Source: an uncultured archaeon
GTDB taxonomy: Archaea > Asgardarchaeota > Heimdallarchaeia > Heimdallarchaeales > Kariarchaeaceae
Direction: 5' to 3'
DNA: 64,000 nucleotides
NCBI GenBank assembly: GCA_964645535.1
Contig: CAZYCQ010000006.1
Location: 1-64,000 of the forward strand
The notes below the pieces were generated by a model. That model was not told where the DNA came from. It saw only the letters and a program-made list of their open reading frames with translations, and ran no database searches. Of this stretch, positions 45,840 through 50,277 are shown piece by piece. The first letter of the stretch is position 1, and every line of letters starts with the position of its first letter. The translations under genes were made by a program, and so were the position numbers.

Positions 45840-45893
45840 TCATCATTGCAGCAGAAGAGCAAAAGACTATGTTTTATATTCAATGTCAGAACC

Positions 45894-47099
45894 ATGATTG
45901 TGAAAACCTTCCCCAAAATGGTCAAATGGGAAGAAGCTATGCAACTGATTTCCTCCCATATTCGACCAATTGCTGATGAAGAACCAATCTCCATCAATGA
46001 TGCATATGGACGAATAGCAAGCAGAAACGTCACTGCAACCCGACAGATCCCAGCATTCCCCATGTCCCTCGTCGACGGATTTGCAGTCGCAGATGACTCT
46101 GGAGAATGGACAATTGTAGGAGAAGTCAAGATCGGAAAACAGCACCAGATCAAACTCGAAGAAGGACAATGTGCACGAATCGCAACAGGTGGGATAGTAC
46201 CCGAAGGAACATACGCCATTCTCAAAATAGAGGACGTTCAATTGACACAAACAGAAACACAAGGAACTGTCATCTATTCAAAAGAAATCAAAAAAGGAAA
46301 TGAATTCGTCCCGGCAGGAAGTGACATTCCCTTGGGAAAAACCATACTCAAACACGGCCAACGAATTGGCTTCAAAGAAATCACAGTACTATCCGCCCAA
46401 GGACATCCCGCAGTCTTCGTCAAACGAAAACCAAGAATCTTCCTGATCATCACTGGTCATGAAATCAAACCCCCAGGAGTAGAGCTGCAACATGGTGAAA
46501 CATACGATTCCACATCGGCAATGCTACGGGCACTTGTCACACGCCTAGGAGCAGAAATTCTTGAAGTCATCTATGTGGGAGAAGACGTCGATTCAATCAG
46601 AGCCGCTCTAGGACAGTCAATGCCCATCGCAGACCTCATCATAACAACAGGAGGAACATCGGTAGGAAAGGCAGACAACGTCGCAAAAACAATCGAAATG
46701 CTCGGTCAAATCATCTTCCATGGAATGAACGTCCGACCAGGAAAACCAATGCTCTTCGGAATGATTGAAGGAACACCAATCCTAGGATTCCCGGGATTTG
46801 TAACCTCAAGCCTCGTCATGGCTCACCTTCTCCTCCCAAAAGTCATTGCAGACCTCTATGGAATCCCTCCCATCGAATTGAAACAAACTCAAGTCCAACT
46901 GGCAAATGATATCAAAGGATACCTAGGATGGAACCGTATCATCCCAGGAAAAATCATCCAAGGAAAATTCCACTCAACTTTCAAAACAAGCGCAGCACTA
47001 AGCAGCTTCGCAGAATCTCAAGGATATATCCACCTGAAACCGGACGAGGAGATCGCAAGAAAAGGAGAAACCAGACTGTTCACCCACTTCATCAAATGA
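45894..47099 (+). CDS. moeA: Molybdopterin molybdenumtransferase MoeA
   Basis: SLVDGFAV, IATGG.VP, TGHEI, TTGGTSVG, RPGKP, GFPG; ATG at 45894. Confidence 0.93.
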   Translation: MIVKTFPKMVKWEEAMQLISSHIRPIADEEPISINDAYGRIASRNVTATRQIPAFPMSLVDGFAVADDSGEWTIVGEVKIGKQHQIKLEEGQCARIATGGIVPEGTYAILKIEDVQLTQTETQGTVIYSKEIKKGNEFVPAGSDIPLGKTILKHGQRIGFKEITVLSAQGHPAVFVKRKPRIFLIITGHEIKPPGVELQHGETYDSTSAMLRALVTRLGAEILEVIYVGEDVDSIRAALGQSMPIADLIITTGGTSVGKADNVAKTIEMLGQIIFHGMNVRPGKPMLFGMIEGTPILGFPGFVTSSLVMAHLLLPKVIADLYGIPPIELKQTQVQLANDIKGYLGWNRIIPGKIIQGKFHSTFKTSAALSSFAESQGYIHLKPDEEIARKGETRLFTHFIK

Positions 47100-47196
47100 A
47101 GCAAAATTCATTGACTAATCAGATTCGATCTGAAATGCAGACCATCAGCTTTACACAATGATTGCAACCTATGCCAGATACTCCATTGTAGCATCA

Positions 47197-47439
47197 GTTT
47201 CAATCCCTAATGGGTCTTCACCCTCTCATAACAAGTCAACATAGGATTTTAAAAAATGTAGACCCATGGTTTCAATCCCTTAAGGGTTCTCATCTCTCGC
47301 GACCAAGATTGACATGCTGAAAAACCATGGAGAAGGGTTCAAACCCTCATATGTTTTCAGCAGTTACAACAAGTCAACATATAATTTAAAAAAATGTGGG
47401 GTCATGGTTTCAATCCCTTATGGGTTATCATCTCTTGAC
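47197..47439. CRISPR. Degenerate CRISPR-like mini-array (4 repeats, 3 spacers), no adjacent cas genes
   Basis: 33-36 nt repeats at 47197, 47269, 47336 and 47407 with consensus GTTTCAATCCCT-N2/3-GGGT..TCA.CTCT...(G/A)AC, an internal CCC/GGG hairpin, and 32-36 nt spacers; the minus strand ends in ATTGAAAC; repeat 3 is strongly diverged. Confidence 0.65.
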
Positions 47440-47461
47440 AAAGACTAATTTTATAACTTAA

Positions 47462-48073
47462 GTCATTCTACATAAAATTTACGAAAACAAATATGACTTT
47501 TGCATCGATTCAAAAGAATCACAGTTTTCAGAAGCTGTCCTCATAAAATTCAAAATCACATCCAGATCAAGTAACTCACGAATTATTGCTATATTCATAC
47601 CAAGAAGAAACATAAAAATAGATGGTAAAGCATACGAAGACATCGTAAAAATTCTTTCCGAGAAGGCAAGAGTTGAAATCAAAAACCCCGCATATAGATT
47701 GACCCCATTACTCGAAAATATGGAAGAAGATATACGGCAGCTGAAATTAAGGATACTTGCAACATTTTTCACCCCACCACAGACTTTCTTCGCACCATCT
47801 GGAAGAATAATCTCCCTGCCCGAATTTAGTGTCAGAAACGGAAGGGACGTCCATATACTCGACCTAGAACAGCCAAGCCAGGAATTGATCCATATATTGG
47901 ATGAAATCGAATTCCTCCAACCTGTACTCAAAAACTTGGATCGAACAATAAGGAATTGGGCATATCAAACTACAGATACAACGATTAAAAACCTCATCGA
48001 AAAACTTACCAAAAATAACCAACCGTCCAAATTTGTTGAGATGCTGATTCAATGGCTCCAAAGATTCCGATGA
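47462..48073 (+). CDS. Hypothetical protein; start uncertain
   Basis: Frame is open for 203 codons from 47462 but the first ATG/GTG/TTG is TTG at 47699. Confidence 0.5.
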   Translation, partial: VILHKIYENKYDFCIDSKESQFSEAVLIKFKITSRSSNSRIIAIFIPRRNIKIDGKAYEDIVKILSEKARVEIKNPAYRLTPLLENMEEDIRQLKLRILATFFTPPQTFFAPSGRIISLPEFSVRNGRDVHILDLEQPSQELIHILDEIEFLQPVLKNLDRTIRNWAYQTTDTTIKNLIEKLTKNNQPSKFVEMLIQWLQRFR

Positions 48074-48193
48074 GAACCTTCCGAAAATTATAATTACTTC
48101 AAAATACTACTTCAATTGTCTACGGACGGACATGGAATTTCAGTGCGAGATTCGAAACATGGTGCTGAAAAACCAATAGTAGATCCTTCTAAA

Positions 48194-48283
48194 GGGCGTG
48201 TAGCTCAGCTTGGTAGAGCAGCGGGCTTTTAGGGTGTATTCAAAGATACCCGAAGGTCGAGGGTTCAAATCCCTCCACGCTCA
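48194..48283 (+). tRNA. tRNA-Lys(UUU) with 16-nt intron at 37/38 (48232-48247)
   Basis: GGGCGTG/CACGCTC acceptor stem, D-arm GCTC..GAGC, anticodon TTT at 48228-48230, T-arm GAGGG-TTCAAAT-CCCTC; CTTT/AAAG central helix with 3-nt bulges (BHB-like). Confidence 0.93.
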
Positions 48284-48340
48284 TATTTTTTTTGTGTGTA
48301 TTTTGTGGAAGGATTTATTATTGTTTTTTTCATTTTTGTG
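48284..48340 (+). terminator. Oligo-T archaeal terminator after tRNA-Lys
   Basis: T8 run immediately after the discriminator base, followed by further T-tracts. Confidence 0.55.
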
Positions 48341-48715: not shown

Positions 48716-50023
48716 TTAGTATGCTTTGTATGGTATGAGGAATAGTTTGCTTTGGAAGATAAACCAGAATAGGAGTAGTTGGAACATTAGAGTGATGAAG
48801 AGTGATGATGCGAAAGCTATTGGATATCTTGATTGATTTTTCTTGACGAGTTTTGAGTATCCTATACCTACGAGGAATACATAGATGAAGAACATTAGGA
48901 ATATTGGCAGAGCGACGAGGAATAGGAATGGGAGTGTATCTTTTTCTTCGATGGACAGTTCTTCACTGGATGGGTGGAATCCTACAAGTTCTTGGTAGAA
49001 AATTCCTGCGAATAGTTGTGCGAATGCTAGTACGAATATGGCAATTCCTGCGAGGAGTATAGCGCTATTCATGAAATTTTTGGAGAAATTTCCGGTGACG
49101 AGTCCGATGACCAAAGGTTGGAGGATGATATATGATAGTAGTACACCGAATATCATGAGGTAGAAGCTGATCCAGAATTGTAAAAATCCAGCATTTGCTT
49201 CATTTGCTCGTATTGAGTTGATGCTGAATGTATTAAAGCTAAGGAAATAGAAGAGTCCTTTTCCATTTACGACGATTGATGTGAAGAATGAGGAGCTGAT
49301 GAATGCGAGAAATAGGAACCACCACGGGAGTATTTCAGCGTATGCACCTCTTGTAGGTCGTGTAATGAATTCAGGGATGAACTTGAGCATACTTTTGACT
49401 TCTTCTGATTTTGACACGAGGAATGAGGTAATAAATCCGGGCACCAGAAGGAAGATTGCATAACTTGCGAGGGTGATGGCGAACTGTGTTGGGCTGATGC
49501 TCAGAGCCACAAGGAGGTTATTGGTGATTGAAATAGCTGGGCTGTTGTTGAGGAAGAACATGGGGAACCAGAATGCGGAGAAGACGATTGCAAGAAGTGC
49601 CAAGGTTGTCATGATGAGTTTTGGTTTTTGGGGGACGTTATTGTACCATAGTTTTTCTTCGACGACCTCATCAACGATTGGTTCGAAGTCGTCGAGGATT
49701 CTTCCATCGATTTGGAGATCTTGGTATTTTTCCCTGAATCTGGAGATGAATTCATTGAGGAGTTCTTGTGCATCTCCTTCGTCCATTCGTTTATCAAGTG
49801 TGAGGACGAACAGGAGGTCGGCCTGTCTTTCCTTGAAGATGGTTCGGACGTTTTGGAGGTCGAGGTTTTCGATTTTTTCTCCTTCGGTTTCGGCGGTCAT
49901 GCTGTAGACTGCGCTGATAAGTCCAGCGGTCAAAGATACATCAGTCTCGATTTCTTTTTGGCTGAATTGTTTGGAGAAGTATATTTGTCCATAGGTTGTC
50001 ATGACAAGCAGTGTCTTGATCAT
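48716..50023 (-). CDS. N-terminal longin-like domain fused to a multi-pass membrane domain
   Basis: MIKTLLVMTTYGQIYFSKQF...SLTAGLISAV...LLFVLTLD followed by about 7 TMs; ATG at 50023 preceded by AGGT. Confidence 0.75.
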   Translation of the reverse strand: MIKTLLVMTTYGQIYFSKQFSQKEIETDVSLTAGLISAVYSMTAETEGEKIENLDLQNVRTIFKERQADLLFVLTLDKRMDEGDAQELLNEFISRFREKYQDLQIDGRILDDFEPIVDEVVEEKLWYNNVPQKPKLIMTTLALLAIVFSAFWFPMFFLNNSPAISITNNLLVALSISPTQFAITLASYAIFLLVPGFITSFLVSKSEEVKSMLKFIPEFITRPTRGAYAEILPWWFLFLAFISSSFFTSIVVNGKGLFYFLSFNTFSINSIRANEANAGFLQFWISFYLMIFGVLLSYIILQPLVIGLVTGNFSKNFMNSAILLAGIAIFVLAFAQLFAGIFYQELVGFHPSSEELSIEEKDTLPFLFLVALPIFLMFFIYVFLVGIGYSKLVKKNQSRYPIAFASSLFITLMFQLLLFWFIFQSKLFLIPYKAY

Positions 50024-50277
50024 TGTCTCGTACCTAAAGAGACGGCTTTCACATATAAATGGAACGGATTCCTGATTGGAATTTGCAAGAGAATGGAGGT
50101 GGAGAAATGTGCAAGATACACCGAAGGGGTTTAAATACCGAATCAAGGTTTAATAATTTCCAAGATCGGTGATGCATTTCGGAATTTTTTTCATAAACCA
50201 TAATTGTTATAAATATATCCTCGATAATTGGTTTATTTCTTGGAAAAATTGATGAATTTTTCCGAGAGGTGAGATAT

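Follow-up and report, generated by a model that had tools for sequence, protein, structure and literature searches.

A distant, degenerate and leader-bearing relic CRISPR array of the host type I-B repeat family in a Kariarchaeaceae genome

Between moeA and a tRNA gene of an uncultured archaeon of the Kariarchaeaceae (Heimdallarchaeia; GenBank assembly GCA_964645535.1) lies a short series of CRISPR-like repeats, which a sequence-only reading had interpreted as a degenerate, domesticated array that may give rise to regulatory RNA. The locus raises the question of whether such an array has taken on a regulatory role or is what remains of an ordinary array of the host, and, if the latter, whether it can still be processed. 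We examined this question in the window, the whole stretch of 64,000 nucleotides that was analysed, which is contig C6 of a 3.6-Mb assembly of 176 contigs (G000).

Layout of the mini-array

Both direct reading of the sequence from 46800 to 47900 and a repeat finder identified four repeats of 33-36 nt, which start at 47197, 47269, 47336 and 47407 and are spaced 72, 67 and 71 nt from start to start, confirming the repeat number, length and period of 67-72 nt described from the sequence alone. The array was not reported by Tandem Repeats Finder, which is unsurprising given how far its repeats have diverged. On the minus strand, three of the repeats carry an 18-nt module consisting of CCC, a 4-nt loop, GGG and the handle ATTGAAAC, so that the hairpin and handle noted earlier in three repeats are exact. 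The module has three exact matches in the 64-kb window, all inside 230 nt, compared with 0.4 matches in shuffled sequences even at up to three mismatches. Comparison of the repeats with Rfam gave scores below threshold (R1 with CRISPR-DR8 and CRISPR-DR60, and R4 with CRISPR-DR56 at 29.9 bits against a threshold of 35 bits), and since the working repeats of the same genome are likewise below threshold (DR60, 26.5 bits), these scores do not discriminate. In the one near-identical, independent assembly that was found (GCA_003696825.1), 2 mismatches occur in 6348 nt and none of them in the array, indicating that the array is not an assembly artefact.

In RNA sense, the order of elements is leader, R4, S3, R3, S2, R2, S1, R1, then 27 nt of spacer-like sequence and what may be the remnant of a fifth repeat, all on the minus strand. 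The leader-proximal repeat R4 (47407-47439, 33 nt) has an intact stem and handle and a shortened 5' half, and is followed by spacer S3 (47371-47406, 36 nt). R3 (47336-47370, 35 nt) is decayed: one side of its stem and two handle positions are lost, the handle now reading TTTGAACC, and 4 of its 14 stem and handle positions are changed. The unique spacer S2 (47304-47335, 32 nt) separates R3 from R2 (47269-47303, 35 nt), in which stem and handle are intact and the loop is changed; then come S1 (47233-47268, 36 nt) and the leader-distal repeat R1 (47197-47232, 36 nt), whose 5' half has diverged. Past R1 lie a 27-nt spacer-like stretch, S0 (47170-47196), whose seed matches were not above those of shuffled sequences, and R0 (47133-47169), located 63 nt past the start of R1. 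The first 8 or so nucleotides of R0 (GTTGCAAT in crRNA sense) resemble the repeat family, and the same word opens the C98a and C71 repeat variants of this genome as well as the repeats of G003, a genome of the same genus; the hairpin and handle are absent from R0, which could conceivably be the stump of a fifth repeat. Folding of the minus-strand transcript revealed nothing past the mini-hairpins (overall z = -1.08). As a separate observation, the mutated R3 and the end of S2 together form a new small palindrome, AGGGTTCAAACCCT, at 47334-47347, which is terminator-like on the plus strand.

Part of the array is duplicated. A direct repeat of 68 nt with 87% identity joins 47230-47297 (spacer 1 and repeat 2) to 47368-47435 (spacer 3 and repeat 4), 138 nt apart, which bears out the earlier observation of spacer and repeat units duplicated at that period. 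Of the 36 positions of S1 and S3, 29 are identical and seven differ, four of the differences lying at guide positions 5-9. R2 and R4 have in common derived features that are missing from the canonical repeats and from R3. This favours duplication of a block through recombination between repeats over two separate acquisitions, and the duplicated unit, whose copies later drifted, most likely has this origin. The layout can be read as two repeat-spacer-repeat copies lying 32 nt apart. Duplication of the whole block was considered and rejected, since the similarity of S2 to the flank past R1 is not significant (334 of 2000 shuffles score as well) and only R1-S1-R2 and R3-S3-R4 are related.

Kinship with the type I-B arrays of the genome

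Regular arrays built from the same 37-nt repeat family occur on C58, where 17 repeats extend as far as the end of the contig, at both ends of C98 and at the contig ends of C71, C96 and C123. On C98, the type I-B genes cas8b, cas7, cas5, cas3 and cas6 are located between two arrays of this family. The genome as a whole contains three cas1 genes, three cas3 genes, two type I-B cas7 genes and one cmr2/cas10 (on C82), with further cas6 genes on C74, C69 and C92 and with cas clusters on C98, C92, C69, C74, C129 and C82. Both components that had been singled out for checking, Cascade (the I-B operon of C98) and cas1, are thus present, and the description of the array as Cas-less holds locally, in that a solo cas6 37 kb from the array is the only cas gene found on contig C6, but it does not hold for the genome.

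The repeats of the mini-array are homologous to those of the cas-adjacent arrays: the last 19 nt of R1 are identical to the canonical repeat, and R2 shares both of its ends with it. When each repeat was compared with its best canonical variant, R1, R2 and R4 had 4-6 changes each and R3 had 11. The mini-array falls short of a regular array in that its repeats are unequal both in length (33-36 nt) and in sequence, and in that two of its spacers are near copies. We take such irregular repeats and non-unique spacers to mark decay and not a different origin. The mini-array therefore resembles the arrays of C58 and C98 in repeat family, leader homology, orientation and handle, but it has none of their identical 37-nt repeats, unique spacers of 36-38 nt and intact leader-repeat junction. 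Two further features of the family elsewhere in the genome were observed. A run of N at C58:18907-18916, in the leader-proximal part of that array, explains an irregular repeat spacing of 114 nt, and a solitary full-length repeat is present at C42:28686-28722, matching the canonical repeat at 29 of 37 positions with one stem position changed and with no recognisable leader or second repeat.

The leader provides a second line of kinship. The AT-rich tract noted earlier at about 47440-47490 proved to be part of a true CRISPR leader (47440-47570, minus strand), whose homology to the flanks of two bona fide arrays extends for about 130 nt, at 58-64% identity to the leaders of C58 and C98, and which keeps the conserved TTATGTAGA block; the two working leaders are 80% alike. 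This homology lies on the side predicted by the orientation of the repeats. A DNA search of relatives returned only paralogous matches, all within the same genome, between the flank of R4 and the flanks of the C58 array and of the first C98 array. Consistent with this orientation, the degenerate terminal repeats of the C98 and C96 arrays are found at the end opposite their leader-like flank. The leader-repeat junction of the mini-array is no longer intact: the last 25 nt of its leader are only 44-48% identical to the working leaders, between which identity in this segment is 96% and whose junction motif is also found in the leaders of G001 and G003, two genomes of the same genus. Because the junction has decayed, uptake of new spacers at the mini-array is unlikely, and from this sequence we infer that spacer integration is no longer possible there.

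Taken in the terms of Bernheim et al. (2019, PMC7145637), who found distant arrays with repeats compatible with cas clusters in trans to be common, the mini-array is a 'distant' and not an 'orphan' CRISPR: it lies more than 20 kb from any cas cluster, a distance that may differ in reality because the assembly is fragmented, and a compatible cluster exists in the genome. Like other distant arrays (PMC7145637), it has no cas cluster on its contig, has repeats that match a cluster elsewhere in the genome, is small and bears signs of drift. It differs from them in being more degenerate, with repeats of 33-36 nt of which two are decayed, and in its duplicated spacer unit and lost junction. The locus is almost certainly a distant, degenerate, leader-bearing relic array of the I-B repeat family of its host. 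As a kind of element, an ordinary relic array is already known.

Decay, constraint and the prospect of Cas6 processing

Whether the relic can still be processed is best judged from where its repeats have changed. In alignments of each repeat to its best canonical variant, in which stem and handle comprise 14 positions, the stem and handle of R1, R2 and R4 are unchanged, whereas their 5' parts show 3-6 changes and their loops 0-2, in agreement with the earlier remark that the repeats vary in one half while hairpin and handle are conserved; R3 has six changes in the 5' part, one in the loop and four in the stem and handle. In pairwise comparisons of R1, R2 and R4, 0 of 42 stem and handle sites differ versus 19 of 65 sites in the 5' part and loop (Fisher p = 4e-5, the pairs not being independent). 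This statistic overstates the constraint, as the repeats were recognised through the very motif that was tested, an ascertainment effect, and R3 and R0 have lost that motif; the contrast remains when R3 is included (changes at 4 of 56 stem and handle sites versus 23 of 92 elsewhere). Since variation among the working repeats of this genome is likewise confined to the 5' halves, the mini-array shows the natural constraint of its family. Conservation of stem and handle in three repeats while the rest diverged suggests retained Cas6 processing, and we infer that R4, R2 and R1 have been kept, now or recently, fit for cutting by Cas6.

The explanation that we favour, by a modest degree when taken as a whole, is a distant relic array with Cas6 supplied in trans and with RNAs usable as old memory. 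According to this explanation, a relic of four or five repeats would have been split off from, or left by, a larger I-B locus together with its leader, and transcription of the minus strand would still be driven by the promoter in the leader. A Cas6 acting in trans, most simply the I-B Cas6 of C98 (C98:6789-7703), would cut after GGG in R4, R2 and R1. Both predicted products would start with AUUGAAAC: a canonical crRNA of about 72 nt with S1 as its spacer (47276 down to 47205) and, owing to the probable loss of cutting at R3, a species of about 138 nt in which handle and S3 come first (47414 down to 47277). On the strength of the pattern of constraint, the array probably still yields this canonical S1 crRNA and the longer S3-led RNA through Cas6 in trans. 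The S1 and S3 RNAs could be taken up by the I-B effector, and perhaps the III-B one, and so preserve an old immune memory of two variants of one element, while new spacers would no longer be added to the array. Two observations weigh against parts of this explanation. The differences between S1 and S3 fall mostly at guide positions 5-9, unlike what selection for a single target would leave, and this speaks against the immune memory; in a degenerate array of G003, described below, handles decay about as fast as 5' halves (compared by eye), and this speaks against retained processing.

Processing had been ascribed, as a possibility, to the solo cas6 of the same contig (9571-10350, minus strand; PF10040). 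This gene does encode a genuine Cas6, with 28% identity to the I-B Cas6 of C98 and with orthologues in G002 (53%) and G001 (39%), and it remains a candidate processor. The I-B Cas6, which is encoded beside arrays of the repeat family of the mini-array, would nevertheless be the more economical processor, and sequence tools cannot separate the two. The stand-alone Cas6 paralogue lineage to which the solo cas6 belongs may merit a look of its own.

The most serious rival is that the locus is a fully dead fossil, neither transcribed nor processed, in which the three intact modules have simply not yet mutated or owe their appearance to the way in which the repeats were recognised. We regard this as unlikely, though well short of negligible. 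It would accommodate the decay of R3 and R0, the uneven repeat lengths, the lost leader-repeat junction and a leader just 58-64% identical to working ones, as well as the handle decay in the relic of G003, the failure to find a spacer target and the empty site in three genomes of the same genus. It fits less well with the position of the changes. At the 19% divergence of the duplicated spacers, 0 of 42 stem and handle changes would have a probability of about 1e-4, and less at the divergence of the leader; moreover, all three changes in the 3' halves of R1, R2 and R4 fall in the 4-nt loop, and the TTATGTAGA block of the leader is kept.

Neighbourhood, targets and regulatory or mobile origins

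The array lies between moeA (45846-47099, plus strand), the 3' end of which abuts the trailer end of the array, and a truncated gene on the same strand (47612-48073), which corresponds to the C-terminal 150 or so codons of an uncharacterised multi-copy family and whose homology starts just past the distal end of the leader. In the truncated gene, in-frame start codons first occur at 47699 (TTG) and 47720 (ATG), and a protein of 117 aa is called in the near-identical assembly. The frame 47468-48073 (plus strand) is open upstream of the first start codon and contains conserved residues (YED.V...A.V..N...R), so that the start is either lost or non-canonical; its homologues include paralogues of 255 aa on C42 and 150 aa on C97, and it is also homologous to the C-terminus of proteins of 1005 aa (G000:C11) and 1289 aa (G002:C127, beside a trypsin-like peptidase), both of which are without Pfam domains. 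An intron-bearing tRNA gene follows at 48194-48283 (plus strand; Rfam tRNA 59.7 bits), with an anticodon that by eye is TTT (Lys). Around this gene, at about 48100-48300, GC and AT skew change sign, coinciding with a change in gene orientation. Farther on, a gene at 48716-50146 (minus strand) encodes a protein of 476 aa that is conserved in G002 and G003 and has a sub-threshold Pfam match to the clathrin-adaptor small-chain (longin-like) family.

No DNA match to the mini-array was found in 40 relatives. The conservation between moeA and tRNA-Lys that had been put forward as a check was absent from three genomes of the same genus (G001-G003), in which other genes directly follow moeA; with MoeA proteins only 41-64% identical, the genus is deep and this test is a weak one. 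At another site, G003 has a mini-array of its own (C4:553876-554062; L056:1377-1562), in which three degenerate repeats, of the family variant found in that genome, are preceded by a leader clearly homologous to its working leader. The two loci are alike in being degenerate arrays of one family with a homologous leader of their own and no cas genes nearby. They differ in that the G003 array lies beside ABC ATPase genes, has unrelated spacers and has decayed handles in two of its repeats. Orthology between them was rejected, as only the repeat aligns and a shared 10-mer on the opposite strand was taken as chance. We conclude that this lineage has repeatedly given rise to mini-arrays that have a leader but lie apart from cas genes, and given such recurrent relics in the genus, fission or relocation of arrays followed by drift fits better than a conserved regulatory gene.

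A domesticated regulatory array of the CreA/CreR type, in which the two units would yield crRNA-like RNAs that pair partially with a host promoter and so bring Cascade to repress it, is improbable. Its main attraction is the state of the repeats. Degenerate repeats in which the 5' handle and the positions required by Cas6 survive are the hallmark of creA (Cheng et al. 2021, PMC8501985), and R1, R2 and R4, which degenerate in different directions while their stem and handle are unchanged, have this property in a similarly small array; the arrangement as two repeat-spacer-repeat copies also suits it. CreA and CreR differ from the mini-array in every other respect that was compared, being situated in cas loci, having usually two repeats and one spacer, being conserved among related loci and having a spacer that is complementary in part to the promoter of a toxin or cas gene nearby (PMC8501985; Shmakov et al. 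2023, PMC10120712). The neighbours of the mini-array are moeA, the truncated gene and tRNA-Lys and not a cas operon, the one cas gene found on the contig being the solo cas6.

Nor did the spacers point to a regulated promoter. Searches of the whole genome with S1, S2 and S3 by blastn-short and by ungapped scans (at least 22 of 36 positions) gave matches at the level of shuffled spacers beyond the S1-S3 pair itself, and PAM-proximal seeds, scanned against 243 kb comprising cas contigs and local DNA, cas promoters included, matched no more often than those of shuffled spacers. The best genomic match of S2 (25 of 32 positions, C65:9864) was set aside because it looks like a common translation-start context. 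The search of public collections likewise yielded no target: no protospacer was found in a viral contig collection with a degenerate S1/S3 core and three patterns in which every sixth base was free, the core and a pattern of repeat plus spacer ends found none in genome and metagenome contig collections, and an R2-specific 27-mer had no match in metagenomes. No conserved counterpart was found in the genome, metagenome or viral collections, among the 40 relatives searched by DNA or beside moeA in the three same-genus genomes of this deep genus, and the guide seeds of the two copies differ. Since the regulatory reading failed each test that could be run, namely location, targets and conservation, it is weakened; a CreA/CreR-like role, and with it the earlier proposal of a CreTA-type array, is not supported. 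Scarcely better placed is the broader possibility of two repeat-spacer-repeat copies far from cas loci, kept for Cas6 cutting and for their handle, that would guide a I-B or III-B effector either as a CreA/CreR-type regulator or as long-lived memory of a resident element; we consider this improbable to a similar degree.

Two further explanations are very improbable. As an RNA decoy or sponge, the hairpin and handle would be kept in order to titrate Cas6 or Cascade, like the solitary repeat units of viruses and like RNA anti-CRISPRs; apparent selection on hairpin and handle and not on spacers would agree with this, but the site is host-chromosomal, between housekeeping genes, with no PHROG matches nearby and no partial copy of the tRNA on contig C6, and a normal leader homologous to those of host arrays argues for descent from a host array. 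Carriage of the mini-array by a mobile element integrated at tRNA-Lys is equally remote: the array adjoins a tRNA gene and a truncated multi-copy gene in a neighbourhood that is rearranged in every relative examined, but no integrase, no PHROG match among the neighbouring ORFs and no att-like tRNA fragment were found, and at 39% GC versus 41% for the genome the array shows no anomaly of composition.

As an ordinary distant relic, which is how we read the locus, its significance lies mainly in better annotation, the array being assigned to the type I-B system of a host whose genome is rich in cas genes. Its pattern of decay, in which junction, 5' halves and spacers drift and stem and handle stay exact in three repeats, amounts to a natural experiment on the positions that this Cas6 needs. 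The presence of a leader-bearing relic in each of two species of the genus suggests that fission or relocation of arrays is frequent in the lineage. If its RNAs are made and bound by an effector, the locus would represent crRNA-like elements located away from cas loci, which systematic searches confined to such loci (PMC10120712) would overlook.
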